Sequence record: ON862890.1
Direction: 5' to 3' (one strand)
Source of the DNA: Escherichia phage A221
DNA length: 64,000 bases
Shown here: positions 6,099 through 53,549 of the stretch, in pieces
How positions within the stretch are numbered: position 1 is the first letter of the stretch
Layout of the letters: each line of letters starts with the position of its first letter
Program-made: the position numbers and the translations under genes
The notes under the pieces: generated by a model
The model's input: the letters and a program-made list of their open reading frames with translations, nothing else
What the model was told of the DNA's origin: nothing
Database searches by the model: none

Positions 6099-8396
6099 AT
6101 GAACGAAATGTTCTCCCAAGGCGGTAAAGGCTCTACTGGTATTCTTACCAATAAGCAAGCCATTGCTCGTAAGTTTGGTGTTAAGCAGAATGAAGTAGTC
6201 TACTTTTCTGTGGGAGTGGATTTAGGTGGTTACAAAGTTATTTACGATAAGACTACTCAGCGTGCTTATTCATTACCTGTACTTCCGGTAGGAACCACTG
6301 CTGTAAGCCTTAGCAAACAGGCAATCCTGGTTCATTCAGCAGGTACAGTTGATTTGGGTGAACTGGCTGTCACACGTAGGGAATTCGTGTGTTTATCTGA
6401 CTCTTTTGCCACTGGTTTGGTAGTGAATACCAGAAATGAGCTTCTGGTGCATAATGGCATTGGTTATACCTATTTAGGTACTCTACCTGTAACAATTACC
6501 GCAGGAACTAATCCAGTTGACAATGCGGACTGGAAGCCACAGACAGATCCTAATTTACGGGAAGAATTAGCGTCTGACTCCGGCTTCCAGCTGGTTCCGT
6601 CTGTTGAAAAGCAACGATGGCTTTACGCAGGGGATGTGCGTGCTTTTGGAGTTGTCGGTGATGGGTCTGATGAGGCATCTAGTTTACAGTTAGCCATTAA
6701 CTCGGGTAATGTTTTTGTTCCCCCGGGCATGACGGTTTCTCATTCACAAGTTAACATACCAAAAGGTACAATTTTTACTTTCGGTCACGATGCTGGGTTG
6801 ACATCATTGACCGCTAATGCTCTTAATTTTGTCAGCGAGAGCCAATTCAGCTTGCTTTCCCCCGCAGCTTTCGGAGCAACGTCCATCACATTAACATCTG
6901 AGGTGACAGGAACTGGGTATACCCGGGCGTTGATAATACGCACTGAGGACACAAGTGACGCTTGGTATATTGCCAACGCACAGAATCCGGATGTAACCGG
7001 ATACCAAGGCGAATCTTTTTTAATCTCGTCCATATCAGGTGCTACCGTAAATTTAGCAACGGCTTTACCGTGGGACCTAACTACCACCAATTCGGTTATT
7101 TATCTTATAAAAGGCAACGCTACTAAGTTCATCGGGGGAATCTTAAAAAATTCTGCGTCAGGGTCTAGCTACATGTACCAATCTGTGGGGGCTTCGCTTA
7201 TAGAGTTCCATGGTACTGTTTTTGATTATAATGGAAATGGCGGTTCAAGGCATGATAACGCGTACGGTGTGGTGTACCACAACACTACCCATACCGGGCG
7301 TGTCGGAAATGGTAATATATTTTTTGGTTACGGATCTACAGATTGTACTGTTACAGGTACGACCCACATTGGAGGGACTGGTGGGGATGCGCAAATAATA
7401 TCTTATGCTGGCTGCCGTAACATCCGTACATCCCATAACACCCTAAAACCTACGGCCAACAACGGAGGTATATATTTTGGTGCAAAATGCTTCGACTGCA
7501 ACACCCATGCTGATTATATTAAAGGCGGAAAGTATGGGGTTATGGGGGCATTTGGTGCTCAGCGTATTGTTGTGGACTCGCTGGCGGCAGACGATCAAGT
7601 ATCAGGCGTTATCTTTATGGAGCAATGCCAGAACTTTACCATCACAAACCCGTCTATTAGATTCATAAAGACTGGCACTCAAACAACCGCTGCGATATTA
7701 ATTAAGGACTGTGATTATGTGACAGTGGATGCAAATGTCCCTGTAAATACAGGGGCGAACGGGTATATAGTCAGTATGTATAGCGCGCCTGCATACGCCC
7801 TGACAGTTAGAAAAAATATAAACATTACGGTAAAAGGTACTGGCAGTGTATACCTTACTAGCCCTATGACCAATTTCTCGATTAAAGACTGTTTAACATC
7901 TGGCAATATAACAGTTTACTACGCCAATGGTACGTCTACTTACGGCAGGGTTACGCGTAATAGTTGCCGGTTTTTAGTAGCTCAAAGTTTCCAATATTGT
8001 GACATAGATAGTAACACCATTGCGGGGGCTTCTGATTCTGAGGGTATACGCCTCGGTGGTAACTGTAGATGGAACAACGTATATAGAAACAAGGTTAGCG
8101 GGGTTACTACGGCATTCTTCGTTAACTCAGCACCCGCAAATCTATACACGAATGCATTTCATGATGATAACGTAATAGATTACTCAACAGTAACCACCTT
8201 CGTATCATCTCAGACTGGAACCACCACGCCAGTTACTGGAGCTTTAAACCCTGCTCCAGTAAGGAATTTCTTTCTCCCGGCAACAGGTTGGCAGGATAGC
8301 CCTACGGTAAAAAGAACTGTTAGTGGCTGGAGGCATAAAGGCACTACAACAGGCACAGCGTCCGATTGGTTTACTATCCCCTCGCCAGAAGCGTGA
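6099..8396 (+). CDS. tailspike protein 3 (putative depolymerase, pectate-lyase-like)
   Basis: 765 aa; RBS aaagagg; N-terminal module about 60% identical to residues 355-445 of ORF 15-3317; AFGVVGDGSDEASSLQLAINSG motif typical of pectate_lyase_3-type tailspikes. Confidence 0.65.
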   Translation: MNEMFSQGGKGSTGILTNKQAIARKFGVKQNEVVYFSVGVDLGGYKVIYDKTTQRAYSLPVLPVGTTAVSLSKQAILVHSAGTVDLGELAVTRREFVCLSDSFATGLVVNTRNELLVHNGIGYTYLGTLPVTITAGTNPVDNADWKPQTDPNLREELASDSGFQLVPSVEKQRWLYAGDVRAFGVVGDGSDEASSLQLAINSGNVFVPPGMTVSHSQVNIPKGTIFTFGHDAGLTSLTANALNFVSESQFSLLSPAAFGATSITLTSEVTGTGYTRALIIRTEDTSDAWYIANAQNPDVTGYQGESFLISSISGATVNLATALPWDLTTTNSVIYLIKGNATKFIGGILKNSASGSSYMYQSVGASLIEFHGTVFDYNGNGGSRHDNAYGVVYHNTTHTGRVGNGNIFFGYGSTDCTVTGTTHIGGTGGDAQIISYAGCRNIRTSHNTLKPTANNGGIYFGAKCFDCNTHADYIKGGKYGVMGAFGAQRIVVDSLAADDQVSGVIFMEQCQNFTITNPSIRFIKTGTQTTAAILIKDCDYVTVDANVPVNTGANGYIVSMYSAPAYALTVRKNINITVKGTGSVYLTSPMTNFSIKDCLTSGNITVYYANGTSTYGRVTRNSCRFLVAQSFQYCDIDSNTIAGASDSEGIRLGGNCRWNNVYRNKVSGVTTAFFVNSAPANLYTNAFHDDNVIDYSTVTTFVSSQTGTTTPVTGALNPAPVRNFFLPATGWQDSPTVKRTVSGWRHKGTTTGTASDWFTIPSPEA

Positions 8397-43349: not shown

Positions 43350-44570
43350 ATGAAAGATAAAGCCCTAGACGTCCCGTACTGCGGTGTCCGTGAAGAAAAG
43401 ATAAAGTCGGCCAAACCGGTTCTCAGTCCGACCCATACCAGCCTGTCTTACGAATGGATGCGCGATCGTTATCAGATCCACGTCAAGAAGGACGTCCAGC
43501 GCCTTCCTGCTCCTTGGACTGATAATCCCATATTACGGCAGGTCAAGTTCTGTAACGTCCGGAGAGAGCACGACAGGCAGTCTCTCAACCTGATCAACAA
43601 CATCGTCAACAACGATGCTCTGGGTATGGCCGACAAGATGTTCAACTGCGTGATGTTTCGCATGTTCAACCTCTGGGATCCAATCCAGGCTATCGGCGGC
43701 GCGATGACGATCAAAGAATTCGCCGAGATCAACCTCGATGCAACCCGCGAACGACTTCAGAAGTTCGAGGCCGACGGCGGTAAGGTATTCACCAATGCCT
43801 TCAACACGGGCGGCCTGAAGCAATGCCTGGCTTTCCCTGAGCTGGTTGTCAACCACAAGGAGCAGCGCTTCGGTGGGATGATGGTGAATCTGATCTGTAA
43901 AGATGGTTCAACCCAGAACATGGATTATAAAGAAGCCAAGGCGATAGCCGAAGCAGAACCGGACTTCTACACCATCGAAGGTTGGGAACCGTACATGCCA
44001 ATGCGTGTCATCCGCTCCCTGAAGGCATTCGTCAACAAGTATCCAAATTACTTCCATGACCTGCTGCGCCTTGGTACTCCTTTGGAAGTATACCAGCGCA
44101 TGTATGACGACATCGAAGGGCTTGGTCCATTCCTGGCCTATCAGATCTGGGTAGACTTCACTTACATTCCTGAATATCCTTTCAGTGAGAACCACTTCAC
44201 GGTTGCTGGACCAGGCTGTCGCGCAGGGATCGACCTGATGTTCCAGGACAAAGATGGCATGACGCATGAAGAATGCATCTTCTGGTTGCGGGACAATCAG
44301 GACGCGGTTTATGGCCCTCTTGGGTATAACAGGGAAGAATTTTGGTCTGCGGAAGAGCCTTGGGATCAGTGTATGAATGTGATGAGCATCGAGAATATGG
44401 CATGTGAATTGTCGAAATATACTCGTTGTGTAGAGGCCATACAGCAAGGTAAAAAACCGCGCGGGAAGGTTGGATATGACGGCGGTGGGGAATACAAAAA
44501 GCGCTGTGATGAAGTCGTGCTCAAACGTGGTTCCGTCAATTTGCTGGACCGTTTGAAGAAACCTGAATAA
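43350..44570 (+). CDS. hypothetical protein (DNA-metabolism neighbourhood)
   Basis: 406 aa; no catalytic motif confidently recognised; flanked by hairpin terminators on both sides. Confidence 0.4.
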   Translation: MKDKALDVPYCGVREEKIKSAKPVLSPTHTSLSYEWMRDRYQIHVKKDVQRLPAPWTDNPILRQVKFCNVRREHDRQSLNLINNIVNNDALGMADKMFNCVMFRMFNLWDPIQAIGGAMTIKEFAEINLDATRERLQKFEADGGKVFTNAFNTGGLKQCLAFPELVVNHKEQRFGGMMVNLICKDGSTQNMDYKEAKAIAEAEPDFYTIEGWEPYMPMRVIRSLKAFVNKYPNYFHDLLRLGTPLEVYQRMYDDIEGLGPFLAYQIWVDFTYIPEYPFSENHFTVAGPGCRAGIDLMFQDKDGMTHEECIFWLRDNQDAVYGPLGYNREEFWSAEEPWDQCMNVMSIENMACELSKYTRCVEAIQQGKKPRGKVGYDGGGEYKKRCDEVVLKRGSVNLLDRLKKPE

Positions 44571-48261: not shown

Positions 48262-48432
48262 ATGACAGAACCATTCAAGAAAGCTGGTCTAGACACCATC
48301 GACCTCAGCTTTAAACCGAGCGAAACGCTGATGAGTCAGATTGAACTCAATCGCGACTTCCTTGAATATATGCTGGTCAAGCCGGAAGGTGAGGCCGAAG
48401 ACAACCCTGAAGAAGGCAATAACGATGATTGA
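48262..48432 (+). CDS. small acidic protein (56 aa), translationally coupled to vWA gene
   Basis: Not in track; hand translation MTEPFKKAGLDTIDLSF...EGNNDD; stop TGA overlaps vWA start in ATGATTGA arrangement. Confidence 0.3.
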   Translation: MTEPFKKAGLDTIDLSFKPSETLMSQIELNRDFLEYMLVKPEGEAEDNPEEGNNDD

Positions 48433-50626
48433 ATCATTAGAATTTAAGAATGCGGTTGCGACTGCTGCCCCGTCCAACCATGTAATCGTTGTAGACATTT
48501 CTGGCTCTATGTACCGTGCACTCCCTGAAGTCCGTAAGCATCTGAAGGAGAACCTGCCTTCCCTGGTGAAACCGGAAGACACTGTGAGTGTTCTATACTT
48601 CTCATCTCGTGGCGACTTTGGCACTGTGTTCGCTGGTCGCCAGGTTAGTGCTGCGTCTGACCTGAGCGAGCTGAACAAACTGATCGACCGCTTCCTACAA
48701 CCATCTGGCTGTACTGGTTTTGTTGAGCCGTTGAAACTGGCGATGGACACTGCTCGTGGCCTGAAGAAGCCTGGCTATGTCAACAACCTGGCGTTCATGA
48801 CTGACGGGTATGACAACTGCTGGCGTACCAACGAAATTCTACTGGTTGCTGAGACCCTGCCATTTGCTTTCGATAACATTACATTTATCGAATATGGCTG
48901 GTACTGTAACCGCGAACTGCTGGCGCAGATGGCCGAACGCTCTGGTGCTACTCACGTGTTTGCCGAAGGTCAGACCGAATACCAGACCGAGCTGGAAAAC
49001 GTGCTGAAGTCATCAGTGCCGAAGGTGGTTGTTGATGTGCCTCTGTTATACACCCATGCTATCTATGTTGAAAACGGCGTAGCAACTGTTCTGGCGGTAC
49101 AGCCGGATGAAGACCATCCTATCGGCCACGTGAGCATCCCTGAGAGCGTCACCAAGCTGTGGGTTGTAAACCCTAACATGATCGACCAGATGGATAGCCT
49201 GACGGACATCCAGGCGGCATACGTGCTGGCGTTCTACGGCGTACACATCATGGACGCGGACCTGGTGTGGGCTGCACTGAAGAAAACGGGTGACGTTCGC
49301 TTCATCAAACAGTACAGCAACTGCTTCACCAAGCAGGACTACTCCAACATCAAGAACGATCTGGTTCAGGCGATTGTTGACGACCAGCTGCGCGGCGTTG
49401 ACGGTATTGACTATGACCTGGTTCCAGCTGAAGATGCGACCACCGTCGTTGATGTGCTGACGTACCTGGCTGAAGCTGGTGTGCCTGTTGCTACCAAGCA
49501 TCCGATGTTCTCCTATAAGAGCATCGGGCGCGGTACTGTGCAGAAAACCGACGACACCGAAGACAAGCTGGCAGAACAGATCGCGAATGCTCAGTCCAAA
49601 GAAGAGCGTAAAGCCCTGGCTCTCAAGCTGGCAGAGCACGAAGAGTGGAACCCGACGTTCGAACCTACCAACGACCTGGGTGTTGTGCCAATCAGCGATT
49701 TGGTCTATAACTCCGAGCGCCCGAACATCAGTGTGCGTACAATTCAACACGGTACTGTGGCTGTGCCTGAATTCGCACAGAAGAAGTTTGGCCTGCCTGA
49801 AGAACTGGATACTTTCCAGTGGCGCAACTACACCATCGTCAAAGACGGTATCATTAACGTGAAGACTCTGCCGTTCAAGGCTGATATCGAAGTTGTACAG
49901 AAGCTGATCGAAATGGGTGTCCACGTGTTTGGTGGTCCGGAAGTGTTCATCCTGAACCTGGAAAGCGTACCGCTGGTCAACCGCGCCATGGTCAAAAACA
50001 TCAGTGCTGCTCAGTTCTTTGCGGATAATGTCCGTCTGGAAGCCCTGAAAGGCAAGCAGAAGGTGCTGAAGTTCTATCGAGACGCCCTGGTTGGTAAGGG
50101 CAACGCCAAAGGCCTGGCAGTACAGTACGGCGCTGAGGCGGCCGAGTTCCTGTCCTCCTACGGCATCCGCGATTACGGCTTCTCACCGAAGACTGAGACC
50201 AAAGAGTCTACCGACTTCTACATGAGCCGTGAGCTGAACGTGAAGATCGCTGGCGCTTCTTCTCTACCGTCTATCGCAGCGGTACAGAAGAAGATTGCCG
50301 AGAACAAGAAACTCAATGCTGGTGACTTGTTCATCGCCAATGCGCTGAAGGAGTACGAAGCATTCGTGAAGTCTCCTATGATCACTGCCGTGCCTGAAGC
50401 CTTACAGAAACAGCTGATCGAAAACTGGATCGACGCTGCTGCCAAGGCGGCCATCACCGAAGTCCGTGCCCTGAACAAGACACTGTCTAAAGTGGTGTAT
50501 GGTATCGTTGCTGGCCACGGCTGGTTCACCGACCTCGACCTGGAAGAGTCCACCATGGAAGTTGAAGTGGATGGCGTGAAGTACAAGGTCACTGCCGAAC
50601 TGACAGAGAAAGAAATCAAAATCTAA
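48425..50626 (+). CDS. von Willebrand factor A (vWA) domain protein
   Basis: ATG at M29 of track ORF (codon 1 TTG); VVDISGSM MIDAS motif (DxSxS) and downstream MTDGYDN; about 500-aa C-terminal extension of unknown function. Confidence 0.6.
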   Translation: MIESLEFKNAVATAAPSNHVIVVDISGSMYRALPEVRKHLKENLPSLVKPEDTVSVLYFSSRGDFGTVFAGRQVSAASDLSELNKLIDRFLQPSGCTGFVEPLKLAMDTARGLKKPGYVNNLAFMTDGYDNCWRTNEILLVAETLPFAFDNITFIEYGWYCNRELLAQMAERSGATHVFAEGQTEYQTELENVLKSSVPKVVVDVPLLYTHAIYVENGVATVLAVQPDEDHPIGHVSIPESVTKLWVVNPNMIDQMDSLTDIQAAYVLAFYGVHIMDADLVWAALKKTGDVRFIKQYSNCFTKQDYSNIKNDLVQAIVDDQLRGVDGIDYDLVPAEDATTVVDVLTYLAEAGVPVATKHPMFSYKSIGRGTVQKTDDTEDKLAEQIANAQSKEERKALALKLAEHEEWNPTFEPTNDLGVVPISDLVYNSERPNISVRTIQHGTVAVPEFAQKKFGLPEELDTFQWRNYTIVKDGIINVKTLPFKADIEVVQKLIEMGVHVFGGPEVFILNLESVPLVNRAMVKNISAAQFFADNVRLEALKGKQKVLKFYRDALVGKGNAKGLAVQYGAEAAEFLSSYGIRDYGFSPKTETKESTDFYMSRELNVKIAGASSLPSIAAVQKKIAENKKLNAGDLFIANALKEYEAFVKSPMITAVPEALQKQLIENWIDAAAKAAITEVRALNKTLSKVVYGIVAGHGWFTDLDLEESTMEVEVDGVKYKVTAELTEKEIKI

Positions 50627-50633
50627 TCCAACG

Positions 50634-50658
50634 GGCGGGGCAACCCGCCTTTCTTTGG
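50634..50658 (+). terminator. intrinsic terminator after vWA gene
   Basis: GGCGGG-gcaa-CCCGCC followed by tttctttggg. Confidence 0.6.
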
Positions 50659-50668
50659 GAGAAGTAGC

Positions 50669-50992
50669 ATGAGCAGTAAACCAACATATGTTGAAGTCAT
50701 GCGTCATCTGGCTCAGTACGCCACCGACAATCTGAATATGGATCTGTGGCGTGACGATGACAAGCGCAAATTGCTGGACGACGTGGCATCTCAGAACGAG
50801 GACGCCCTGGACAAGCTGGCTGGCCTCCGTACCAAGAAAGACCTCGGTGGTGACGAACTGGATGCCATCGAAATCGTAATGGAACTAGAAGAAGAGTTTC
50901 AGGTCGAAATCGACGACGGGTGGCTAGGTAGTAAAGGCGATGACCCGACCATGGGTGAACTCGCTGAACTCGTGGTTGCCCTGCGCAAATAA
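50669..50992 (+). CDS. acyl-carrier-protein-like protein lacking the phosphopantetheine-attachment serine
   Basis: DLGGDELDAIEIVMELEEEFQVEIDD aligns with E. coli ACP [26 protein letters not shown], with Glu replacing the conserved Ser; own RBS; terminator hairpins on both sides. Confidence 0.6.
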   Translation: MSSKPTYVEVMRHLAQYATDNLNMDLWRDDDKRKLLDDVASQNEDALDKLAGLRTKKDLGGDELDAIEIVMELEEEFQVEIDDGWLGSKGDDPTMGELAELVVALRK

Positions 50993-50998
50993 CAGAAG

Positions 50999-51027
50999 TC
51001 CCCAACAAACGTTGGGGATTTTTACTT
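50999..51027 (+). terminator. intrinsic terminator after ACP-like gene
   Basis: TCCCCAAC-aaac-GTTGGGGA followed by tttttactttt. Confidence 0.6.
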
Positions 51028-51114
51028 TTAGGGGTTTACTTCCTCTAAGGAATGTCCTATTATTCAATAACTGGCGAACGATGGGTTCACCGGGTTGAAA
51101 GGTAAGATTATATC

Positions 51115-51354
51115 ATGAAGAACAAAATGGTCGAAACTTCAGTAGAGATTGATCGCAATTGGGGATTGCTCCGCGCTAAAGGGTTCCGTCGTGTGTATGC
51201 GACCAAAGAAGTCTACGCACAGCGCCGTGACGTTATCATCAGCAAGAAAGGCAAAGAGTGGGTTGCTGAAGAAGTTGATGTCGAGACAGGCATCGTAGGA
51301 AAGGTAAAGGCCAAGGCCGTGATCCTCTTCGCTCTTCTGAAGCACATCAGTTAA
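51115..51354 (+). CDS. hypothetical protein
   Basis: 79 aa; ATG with gaaaggtaag RBS; preceded by TTCAATAA box. Confidence 0.4.
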   Translation: MKNKMVETSVEIDRNWGLLRAKGFRRVYATKEVYAQRRDVIISKKGKEWVAEEVDVETGIVGKVKAKAVILFALLKHIS

Positions 51355-51413
51355 TTCTATAACTTTGGGCGGGGTATGATTACCCCGTCTATTTGAAACC
51401 AAGAGACTATATC

Positions 51414-51788
51414 ATGAAAAAGTTAATCCTCGCTGTTGCCCTGCTGGGCGCTTCCTTTGCTGCTGTTTCCGCCCCTCCTGTCATCACCGGAGTGTCTACC
51501 AACGGTGTTTATGCTTTCAAGGCGTATGGCCAAGACCTCGTTCTGTATAAGAACGGGAAGATGATTGAGCGCTGCGTATCAGACGACGTGAATCGTGGGA
51601 TCGACAATCAGGGTAGCCCATACGTCCTGGACATCTATTCCTGCTCCAACGGGACGAAGTCCTTTGGCGTCAAGACCTTTGGCAACGTCGCCGACGGTGG
51701 CTGGGGCTTCATGTTCGAAACCCGCAACCACCACCCGGTCAAGACCATGCAAGAAGAGTTCTTGATCTCTGTCGGGGGTACGTTATGA
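51414..51788 (+). CDS. putative secreted protein (signal peptide)
   Basis: ATG at M8 of track ORF (codon 1 TTG); MKKLILAVALLGASFAAVSAPP is a signal-peptide-like N-terminus with AxA-type cleavage site. Confidence 0.45.
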   Translation: MKKLILAVALLGASFAAVSAPPVITGVSTNGVYAFKAYGQDLVLYKNGKMIERCVSDDVNRGIDNQGSPYVLDIYSCSNGTKSFGVKTFGNVADGGWGFMFETRNHHPVKTMQEEFLISVGGTL

Positions 51789-52072
51789 CACCATCAGAGA
51801 GAAGTTCTATCAAGGAGATGATCAGAGACAAGGCGTGTGTTGGTCATACTCAGTCAGAGAACATCTTGCGCCTGATGGTAATAAAGAACGATATCGATAA
51901 CAGCCGATTCCAATCAGCGCTCTACGGGCTTCTCGAGTTCGTTCTCCGCCAGGCTGATCTTGGTCCTGTCGGTACTCTTGATGATCTAATCAAGCTGTTG
52001 AACACGGGCGGGGAAACTTTCGACACCGCTCGTATCCTGATTGACGGTGGACCTGAAGAAGACGAGGTATAA
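51785..52072 (+). CDS. hypothetical protein
   Basis: 95 aa; ATG overlapping upstream stop (ATGA). Confidence 0.35.
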   Translation: MTPSERSSIKEMIRDKACVGHTQSENILRLMVIKNDIDNSRFQSALYGLLEFVLRQADLGPVGTLDDLIKLLNTGGETFDTARILIDGGPEEDEV

Positions 52073-52264
52073 TTTGGATAAAGAATTGGTTTGGGAAATT
52101 GTGAAGGGTGTCCTAGTAATAATCGCGGTGGTTTTCATCTTGGGTGGGAACTTCTTCTATTGGTTATTCCGATCCGACCAGAAACGTCGCGAACGCAAGG
52201 AGAAAGAGAGAAAGGATCGATGGATGCGCTAACTAAGGGATAACCCTATATCCCGAGGTGTGTC

Positions 52265-52714
52265 ATGTTCCTTACATCTTTTATTGACTGGTTGAACATC
52301 ATTAACGGCCTGAGGATTCCTGTTGGGAACCTCGGGCTTTCTCGTTCTTCTATGCCGCAAATCGATGCCGACAAACAAGAAGATTTTCACAAATATCTTG
52401 AAGACAACGGCGTGTCCATAGATGCTGTGCAAGTGCCCATCAAAATGCTTCGTCTCACCCAGAACGAAATCAACAAGATGAAGGTCTGGAAGATCATGAA
52501 GAACATCAGAAATAAGAAACCTATGGGTCGAGTTTGGGTGTCTTCTGACAATTACGTTGTTGACGGTTCTCACCGATTTGTCGCTGCGTTGAACATGGAC
52601 GGCAAACAGCGCATGAAGGTCTACAAAGTTGATTTGCCAGCGATGGAATTTGTTAAACTCGCTAAACAGTTTCAGGGTGTGCGATACAGAACGGTCTCAG
52701 ATTCGAGATACTAA
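52265..52714 (+). CDS. ParB-like nuclease domain protein
   Basis: 149 aa; VVDGSHRFVAA matches the ParB/Srx DGxHR motif. Confidence 0.5.
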   Translation: MFLTSFIDWLNIINGLRIPVGNLGLSRSSMPQIDADKQEDFHKYLEDNGVSIDAVQVPIKMLRLTQNEINKMKVWKIMKNIRNKKPMGRVWVSSDNYVVDGSHRFVAALNMDGKQRMKVYKVDLPAMEFVKLAKQFQGVRYRTVSDSRY

Positions 52715-52715
52715 T

Positions 52716-53549
52716 ATGGACGTCTATTCAGAACTTATCGAAATAGGAGCGAAACGTCATTTCGTAAACAAATATCTTTCGCTCATTTCTTCTTTTAGTC
52801 ATTACCAAGGCGTCGGGGAGAAGCATCACATATTACCTGTGGCATTGTTCCCCGAATATGCCACGGAATACGAAAACATCGTCAAACTGCCTCATAGGGT
52901 TCATTATATTGCCCATGTGTGTCTTGCTCTTGCGTTACCAGGTTCATGTATGGTAAATGCGATTATGATTTTGAAGCGGTTAGATAGTAGAGTCAACTCA
53001 CACCTGTTTGCGAAAATGCGCAAGAGATTCGCCGAAAGGCTTTCTGTGGTGAATGCAGGGGAAAATAATCCCATGTATGGCAAGAAGAGATCCCAGAAGG
53101 CAAAGAAAAAGACCTCGGAGTCTCTTAGAAATTTTTATAAATCTAAAAGAAAAGAAGATCCAGATTTAAAAGAATTTTTCTCGGAAAGGAATTCTAAAAT
53201 AAAACGGGGAAAAGATCACCATTCTTATGGGAATAAATTGACCAATAATCTTACTCCAGAACAAGAACGATGTAGAATAGAATCGGTCACCAAGACTTCC
53301 CGTGAAACCATGCCCTGGGAGAAGCCAAGATGGAAACCAGAAAGGGACAAATGGTGGTGTTGGGCTGCACATATACACTATCACATATTGAAAGGTAAGA
53401 CGAGAGGGGAAGCCCTGAAACAAGTATTCGGTTCCAATGACGCAGAAATTTGGGCACAGGTTCGGCCAATTATTCTACGGTTGGATAACGGTTGGGACCC
53501 TTTAACTTGCGAAAAATGGGTTAATCGTTATGGGGTGGAATACCAGTAA
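52716..53549 (+). CDS. HNH homing endonuclease with NUMOD3-like motifs
   Basis: ATG at M30 of track ORF; HHILPVALFPEYATEYENIVKLPHRVHYIAH HNH core; two NPMYGKK / HHSYGNK NUMOD3-like repeats; starts 1 nt after ParB-like gene stop. Confidence 0.75.
   Translation: MDVYSELIEIGAKRHFVNKYLSLISSFSHYQGVGEKHHILPVALFPEYATEYENIVKLPHRVHYIAHVCLALALPGSCMVNAIMILKRLDSRVNSHLFAKMRKRFAERLSVVNAGENNPMYGKKRSQKAKKKTSESLRNFYKSKRKEDPDLKEFFSERNSKIKRGKDHHSYGNKLTNNLTPEQERCRIESVTKTSRETMPWEKPRWKPERDKWWCWAAHIHYHILKGKTRGEALKQVFGSNDAEIWAQVRPIILRLDNGWDPLTCEKWVNRYGVEYQ

Follow-up and report, generated by a model that had tools for sequence, protein, structure and literature searches.

We analysed a 64,000-nucleotide (nt) stretch of Escherichia phage A221 (sequence record ON862890.1), referred to here as the window, around a small gene at positions 50669-50992 of the plus strand. 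The gene encodes a protein of 107 amino acids (aa) that resembles AcpP, the acyl carrier protein (ACP) of Escherichia coli, and that has a glutamate in the column of the serine to which phosphopantetheine is attached. This ACP-fold protein is conserved and under selection, is unable to act as a carrier and belongs with the serine-less ACP-like binding proteins. Upstream of it lies a gene for a von Willebrand factor type A (vWA) protein, and hairpins are found on both sides. The features of the locus are:

50669..50992, plus strand: coding sequence of the 107-aa serine-less ACP-fold protein, with an ATG start and the stop codon TAA at 50990-50992
50657..50664, plus strand: Shine-Dalgarno sequence GGGAGAAG, 4 nt before the ATG, read from the sequence
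50840..50917, plus strand: helix II, the 'recognition helix', and the following acidic turn (residues 58-83, DLGGDELDAIEIVMELEEEFQVEIDD), 17/27 identical to E. coli AcpP
50855..50857, plus strand: codon GAA for Glu63, by alignment in the column of the phosphopantetheine-attachment serine, Ser36 of AcpP
50738..50818, plus strand: variable insertion, specific to the family, that separates helix I from the loop preceding helix II (residues ~24-50), with predicted helices at 30-40 and 44-51, from the AlphaFold2 secondary structure and an L-INS-i alignment
50921..50950, plus strand: conserved family-specific loop after helix II, W-x-G-x-x-G-D-D-P-T (residues 85-94), from the alignment
48425..50626, plus strand: gene for a 733-aa vWA protein (Pfam VWA) with an intact metal ion-dependent adhesion site (MIDAS; D24, S26, S28, T97 and D127), a candidate partner or context only
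50633..50657, plus strand: GC-rich upstream hairpin (GGGCGGG-GCAA-CCCGCC) followed by TTTCTTT, from sequence scan and RNA folding, a terminator-like or attenuating element
50996..51030, plus strand: downstream hairpin (AAGTCCCCAAC-AAAC-GTTGGGGATTT) followed by a T-run, from the inverted repeat and RNA folding

The open reading frame (ORF) at 50669-50992 is a real gene, and sequence matches place the window in an Ackermannviridae phage. Comparison of the region 48300-52800 with phage records gave 278 matches, the top one being Enterobacter phage fGh-Ecl02 (97.4%). The Escherichia phages ZQ1, YX22 and RPN242 match the region at 96-97%, and the next-ranked matches are Salmonella, Shigella, Klebsiella, Dickeya and Serratia phages of the Ackermannviridae. 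The ACP-like gene is found in 271 phage records, thus in essentially all family members (278 share the region). It has kept its full length in about 271 phage genomes and also in relatives with as little as ~35% identity, and diverged relatives (the loci L083 and L084, Erwinia phage Bue1 and Serratia phage 3M) also carry it. The gene region is syntenic with that of the phages Maynard and pertopsoe, where the ACP-like gene lies directly 3′ of the vWA-domain gene, amid genes for replication and nucleotide metabolism. Databases label the protein 'acyl carrier protein', and the Ackermannviridae family of this protein corresponds to PHROG 4154.

According to several sequence searches, the match of the 107-aa protein to ACP exceeds chance. 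In a BLASTP comparison with E. coli AcpP, residues 57-83 align to AcpP residues 31-57 with 17/27 identities (E 5e-9). An earlier note, made from the letters of the window, had counted 17 identical positions out of 26; DLGGDELDAIEIVMELEEEFQVEIDD is present in the ORF and a count by position reproduced this figure. The Pfam PP-binding profile scores 26.0 bits (E 1.1e-5, gathering cutoff 20.8), and a sequence search of solved structures matched about 60 ACPs with E values from 5e-6 to 3e-3 (best 5.5e-6). With the NCBIfam ACP equivalog models only 17-35 bits are reached against cutoffs of 66-106 (for example 34.6 vs 70.45), which is far under the cutoff, and the overall identity to AcpP is 28%. 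Every family member shares 10-18 of the 27 helix II positions with E. coli AcpP, whereas outside helix II the protein has diverged almost completely. The residues D62, L64, D65, I67, E68, E74, E76 and D83 within the segment 58-83 are invariant in the family, and six of them (D62, L64, D65, E68, E74 and D83) correspond to AcpP D35, L37, D38, E41, E47 and D56. The acidic helix II surface of AcpP (D35, D38, E41, E47, E48 and D56) is kept, with D62, D65, E68, E74 and D83 invariant and E75 present in at least 90%. The most conserved residues of the phage protein are the ones by which AcpP docks onto its partner enzymes. Both proteins are strongly acidic; the isoelectric point (pI) of the phage protein is 4.26, with 27 Asp and Glu vs 13 Lys and Arg, and that of AcpP is 4.05.

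The AlphaFold2 model of the protein, with a predicted local distance difference test score (pLDDT) of 75 and a predicted template modelling score of 0.66, contains helices at residues 7-21, 30-40, 44-51, 66-77, 83-88 and 95-106. When the model was compared with known structures using Foldseek, the top matches were all ACPs, with template modelling scores of 0.6-0.7 (normalised to the target). Model and structure comparison together support the four-helix ACP fold for the 107-aa protein, the point that the earlier note had proposed to check by structure prediction. A different picture emerged for the additional residues, which the note had described as a 40-aa N-terminal extension. When the protein was aligned by L-INS-i with AcpP and with relatives that lack the extra stretch, residues 7-21 fell on ACP helix I; the 27 additional residues are therefore most readily explained by an insertion behind this helix (residues ~24-50). 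This insertion is the most variable and indel-prone stretch of the family alignment. In the loop after helix II, W85, G87, D91, D92, P93 and T94 are invariant in 30 Ackermannviridae sequences. Neither the insertion nor the W..GDDPT loop has a counterpart in AcpP. A DDP/DDxT motif related to this loop is found in the nearest short relatives (P0053-P0061), both serine-containing and serine-less ones. Since the nearest serine-containing relatives (P0058 and P0061) share the DDxT motif, the sequences suggest an order of events in which an ACP with a DDxT-type loop lost its serine and acquired the insertion afterwards.

As the earlier note had read, Glu63 (GAA, 50855-50857) occupies the column of AcpP Ser36, and serine was never seen at this column in any family relative examined, down to ~35% identity. 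The 30 aligned homologs, which are 55-97% identical, have Glu here, with Asp in two, and 41/41 cluster representatives have Glu or Asp. The 19 full-length Ackermannviridae loci from IMG/VR likewise show Glu, with Asp (GAT) in 8 (L009-L013, L015, L020 and L021). Seven full-length relatives with 34-50% identity, obtained from a search of 1.84 billion representatives, carry D-[ED]-L, and the distant relatives P0042-P0049 have E or D and never S at this position. A DEL motif is also present in Erwinia phage Bue1 and Serratia phage 3M (90-aa gene). As for the distribution across related phages, which had been suggested as a check, the gene occurs in the 271 phage records and E/D in every relative examined. 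In Erwinia phage vB_EamM-Bue1 (MG973030; L091, ~6315-6612) the ACP-like ORF is ~99 aa long, has the motif AMDELDYIEF and lies directly downstream of a vWA gene; the gene table of this phage lists no gene at this ORF.

Among 12 family members the codon in the attachment column is GAA, GAG or GAT, and pairwise ratios of nonsynonymous to synonymous substitution rates (dN/dS) are 0.04-0.38 for the unsaturated pairs, so that the gene is, by these comparisons, under purifying selection. A sequencing error at this codon, which the earlier note had named as a finding that would overturn its reading, is ruled out by the conservation in relatives, the three different codons and the dN/dS values.

As far as sequence can tell, the 107-aa protein cannot be a conventional phosphopantetheinylated carrier (holo- or acyl-ACP), because the attachment serine is missing in all relatives examined. 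The motif DLGGDELD contains no Ser and no Thr. The carrier proteins known so far (PF00550) all rely on the conserved serine. The host has its own AcpS, but this enzyme finds no serine to modify. A tblastn search of Ackermannviridae records with hand-typed queries for the AcpS of E. coli and the Sfp of B. subtilis revealed no AcpS/Sfp-type transferase, and the annotated neighbours of the ACP-like gene include no acyl-ACP synthetase and no fatty-acid, polyketide or nonribosomal peptide synthetase (NRPS) gene. Compared with E. coli AcpP and PF00550, the phage protein shares the helix II pattern D-x-L-D-x-[VI]-E-x-x-M-x-L-E-E-E-F and the strong acidity; it differs in having E/D for Ser, the insertion of ~27 aa and the W..GDDPT loop, and in the lack of genes for a phosphopantetheinyl transferase or fatty-acid synthase. 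The statement of the earlier note that the protein cannot carry the prosthetic group is borne out for conventional phosphopantetheinylation.

The stem of the upstream hairpin (50633-50650) begins 7 nt past the vWA stop codon, its wider fold has an energy of −17.6 kcal/mol, and in phage Maynard this hairpin is annotated as a terminator. The downstream hairpin (stem 50996-51021) folds with −18.5 kcal/mol (z −4.2; 0/200 shuffles were as stable) and is the probable end of the vWA/ACP-like transcription unit. A sigma70-like site (51035-51063) is located past this hairpin and ahead of the next gene. The sequence scan found no promoter-like site in the 18 nt between the upstream hairpin and the ATG, and no T4-type late promoter motif (TATAAATA) near the ACP-like gene. 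With 18 nt and no promoter between hairpin and ATG, the arrangement of the sequence indicates that the ACP-like gene is probably transcribed by read-through from the upstream vWA gene. The upstream hairpin would then be either a leaky terminator or a processing or stability element. In the minimum-energy fold of the intergenic RNA (50627-50668, plus strand), UCCAA (50627-50631) pairs with UUGGG (50655-50659), which lengthens the terminator-like stem. This predicted pairing overlaps the start of the Shine-Dalgarno sequence and could couple translation of the ACP-like gene to the state of the hairpin. The GC content of the ACP-like gene is 52.2%, that of the vWA gene 52.4% and that of the window 48.7 +/- 4.0%.

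The gene had been described as insulated by terminators on both sides, like a moron. The flanking hairpins are indeed present, but the moron part of the description did not stand: there is no own promoter in the 18 nt, the GC content is normal and equals that of the vWA gene, and the gene is present in 271 records vs 278 that share the region. The ACP-like gene is a core gene of the family and not a moron.

The TTG at 48341, listed as the start of the upstream vWA gene, is probably not the true one: the PHROG 2426 match begins at residue 29 of the TTG-started ORF, and M29 at 48425 agrees with the homologs. The MIDAS residues (D24-x-S26-x-S28, T97 and D127) are invariant in 43 vWA homologs down to 34% identity. 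The AlphaFold2 model of the protein (pLDDT 86.5) matches, in Foldseek, proteins that combine a vWA domain with a beta-sandwich (4fx5, ArnB and Sec23/24), and about 400 residues after the vWA and beta-sandwich part have no clear structural match. No functional link emerged from this model. The family of this protein reaches well past the Ackermannviridae into T4-like phages. Adjacency of the vWA and ACP-like genes is kept in Maynard, pertopsoe, L083, L084 and Bue1; in 3M the ACP-like gene is located ~0.9 kb downstream. In four loci outside the Ackermannviridae with vWA homologs of 34-50% identity (JC221, Thanatos-1, L089 and L090) no ACP-like gene was found within 4 kb. Neither the vWA nor the ACP-like protein was matched by the PADLOC defence models.

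Two side observations concern the wider neighbourhood. At 52716-53549 on the plus strand, an ORF of 277 aa (306 aa if translation begins at an upstream TTG) contains a NUMOD3 motif (Pfam 6.8e-9) and has a GC content of 41% vs 49% for the window; nucleotide homology with most other Ackermannviridae ends near it, at ~52700. It is probably a homing-endonuclease insertion behind the gene for a ParB-like protein of 149 aa. About 6 kb upstream of the ACP-like gene, at 43350-44570 on the plus strand, a gene of the thymidine hypermodification pathway was found, coding for a 5-hydroxymethyl-2′-deoxyuridine DNA kinase (PF18723 helical domain, E 3.4e-81); no link between this gene and the ACP-like gene was found.

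Since the recognition face is kept and the protein can never be loaded, the simplest reading is that it is a binding mimic. We tentatively favour, at somewhat less than even chances, a permanently unmodifiable ACP mimic that is directed at the host and engages a protein that recognises ACP helix II. Such a protein would be expressed last in a unit with the vWA gene, via read-through of the hairpin, and would act by binding only, with helix II docking onto one of the proteins by which the host normally recognises AcpP. The Glu/Asp carboxylate would block conversion to a real carrier by host AcpS; it might also supply a negative charge like that of the holo-ACP phosphodiester, or face an active site or a bound metal. 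The insertion and the W..GDDPT loop may add affinity or specificity for one target. As a result, an ACP-dependent host process would be inhibited or redirected during infection.

Precedents for ACPs acting without the prosthetic group come from several systems. In the mitochondrial ACP of Plasmodium (mACP) the serine is replaced by a hydrophobic residue, Phe113, which stands in for the acyl-pantetheine in the pocket of LYR proteins. The Plasmodium mACP lacks the attachment serine and works as a binding subunit (PMC8547962). The mACP of Plasmodium falciparum, the clearest precedent for an ACP that is not a carrier, is like the phage family in that an ACP fold has lost its serine and is yet conserved. 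It differs in being a eukaryotic organellar protein that binds Isd11-Nfs1 (PMC8547962), whereas the phage has a bacterial host and its protein a carboxylate and no known partner of the LYR type. In E. coli, overproduced ACP, the apo form more than the holo form, inhibits glycerol-3-phosphate acyltransferase and stops growth, according to a review (PMC3896788, which cites Keating, Carey & Cronan 1995). This apo-ACP likewise lacks the prosthetic group and inhibits an ACP-dependent enzyme; it is however the host's own protein, artificially overproduced and with an unmodified Ser, whereas the phage protein has Glu, and for it PlsB is only a candidate target. Apo-AcpP also equals holo-AcpP in binding and activating MukB (PMC8602292). 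Among the ACP-like subunits of mitochondria, those of Tetrahymena complex IV (7w5z_AC) and T. brucei mt-SAF32 (6sga_Fc) differ from the phage protein in being eukaryotic and residing within large membrane or ribosomal assemblies. We found no previous report of a serine-less ACP-like protein in phages, and no Ackermannviridae transcriptome, in the literature.

Several points weigh against a host-directed mimic. Host AcpP is present at ~100 µM, with 86,000-358,000 copies per cell (PMC8602292), which makes simple stoichiometric competition difficult; a decoy therefore needs much tighter binding, perhaps through the insertion and the loop, or a target that meets few competing ligand molecules. All ACPs conserve helix II, in part for structural reasons, so its retention is weak evidence for a host target. 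As a core gene located in the replication region and co-transcribed with the vWA gene, the ACP-like gene fits a phage-internal role equally well. Not every ACP client qualifies as a target, since SpoT does not bind apo-ACP (PMC3896788). The confidence of the structural model is only moderate (pLDDT 75). Finally, the literature search gave no functional study of the protein.

In a phage-internal alternative, the protein would serve the vWA protein as a subunit or ligand, with the Glu/Asp at the tip of helix II entering the MIDAS, as acidic ligands do in integrin I-domains, and the pair would make up a complex specific to the phage. The ligand of a MIDAS site usually contributes a Glu or Asp for coordination. 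The invariant MIDAS on the one side and the E/D at the N-terminus of helix II on the other would agree with such a contact, and exactly Glu or Asp is tolerated at the Ser column, as expected of a metal-coordinating carboxylate. The two genes are adjacent, co-oriented and probably co-transcribed, the adjacency is found even in the deeply diverged L083, L084 and Bue1 (directly downstream) and more loosely in 3M, and the status as a core gene suits a phage-internal function. However, the vWA homologs of JC221, Thanatos-1, L089 and L090 show that the vWA protein does not need the ACP-like protein, and conversely serine-less ACP-like proteins occur without a vWA neighbour (L037 and L085). In addition, the whole Ackermannviridae region is syntenic, so that adjacency is not independent evidence. 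We regard a vWA partnership as rather unlikely, but as the main and a serious rival of the host-directed mimic.

Somewhat less probable still is another non-carrier role of the acidic helical bundle, in which the likeness to ACP reflects ancestry only and the protein is a chaperone or assembly factor for something other than the vWA protein, a nucleic-acid mimic or a metal-stabilised scaffold. The strong acidity of the protein and the conserved loop and insertion that AcpP lacks are compatible with such a role, and a virion-proteomics table for a Vi01-like phage lists the protein with one peptide (PMC10892097). One peptide amounts to trace-level evidence, however, and AcpP is equally acidic, so that the charge may simply be inherited; the highest conservation falls on the residues of ACP partner recognition and reveals no new surface.

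The ACP name in the databases and the intact fold and helix II could also be taken to indicate a genuine carrier that is modified at another residue or via an unconventional carboxylate chemistry. This is very improbable, as DLGGDELD offers neither Ser nor Thr, known carriers use the serine, the score of 34.6 is far from the equivalog cutoff of 70.45, and no genes for phosphopantetheinyl transferase, acyl-ACP synthetase or fatty-acid, polyketide or NRPS synthesis were found. Although loss of a catalytic residue is typical of pseudo-enzymes heading for loss, the idea of a captured ACP gene in decay and without function (or of a sequencing error behind the Glu) is effectively refuted by the low dN/dS at saturated synonymous sites, the full-length retention throughout the family and the arrival at the same substitution through three different codons.

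Serine-less ACP-like proteins are also found outside this family. With the family profile, 80 loci were recovered from IMG/VR, of which 47 keep the DSL motif. An Ala variant (DLKGDALD) occurs in 12 loci, and independent Glu variants are present in L044, L045 and the phage contig L085 with P0057. The group L036-L053 consists of separate viral ACP-like proteins of 79-80 aa with Ala in place of the serine (DLKGDALDAIELVMRLEEEF); the Ala-type gene of L037 (5923-6162) lies directly 3′ of a MazG-like gene. Near the serine-less ACP-like genes of L085 and L037, Pfam domains gave nothing informative beyond MazG and HNH. Phages also encode serine-containing ACPs (PHROG 5934, for example in the Pseudomonas jumbo phage HRDY3), which are stand-alone ACP-fold proteins as well and are categorised as 'auxiliary metabolic / host takeover', as is PHROG 4154. 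These keep the serine and presumably can be loaded by phosphopantetheinyl transferases of host or phage, whereas PHROG 4154 never has it. In cellular reference genomes DEL-type ACP-like proteins are rare, with 63 loci in 185,579 species under a strict pattern. ACP-like proteins from metagenomes and bacteria that have Glu or Asp in the serine column (P0196, P0199, P0201, P0218, P0231 and P0263; P0074, P0076, P0077, P0089 and P0134) include several with N-termini resembling signal peptides or lipoboxes, and others form tandem arrays of two or three domains, most but not all of which lack the serine.

The Ala variant (L037) and the Glu variant (L085) suggest a recurring viral strategy. A broader conjecture, which we consider doubtful, is that viruses have repeatedly turned serine-less ACP look-alikes into proteins for host takeover: three or more unrelated groups of phages (the Glu/Asp type of the Ackermannviridae, the Glu type of L085 and the Ala type DLKGDALD) would have fixed a non-serine residue independently while keeping the recognition helix. 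Their proteins would imitate holo- or apo-ACP without being modifiable and could jam or hijack a node of the host ACP hub, perhaps together with the vWA MIDAS in the Ackermannviridae. Candidate nodes would be PlsB, AcpS/AcpH, lipid A acyltransferases, MukB and the iron-sulfur cluster (ISC) machinery.

Phage therapy and biocontrol make wide use of Ackermannviridae such as Vi01, CBA120, Limestone and related Klebsiella phages, and for most of their core genes no function is known. For one of these core genes, the routine label 'acyl carrier protein' implies a metabolic carrier role that is excluded by the sequence. If the protein is an ACP mimic, these phages would possess a factor aimed at ACP, which is among the most connected bacterial proteins, and ACP-dependent enzymes, themselves targets of antibiotics, could be studied or inhibited with it as a natural probe or scaffold.
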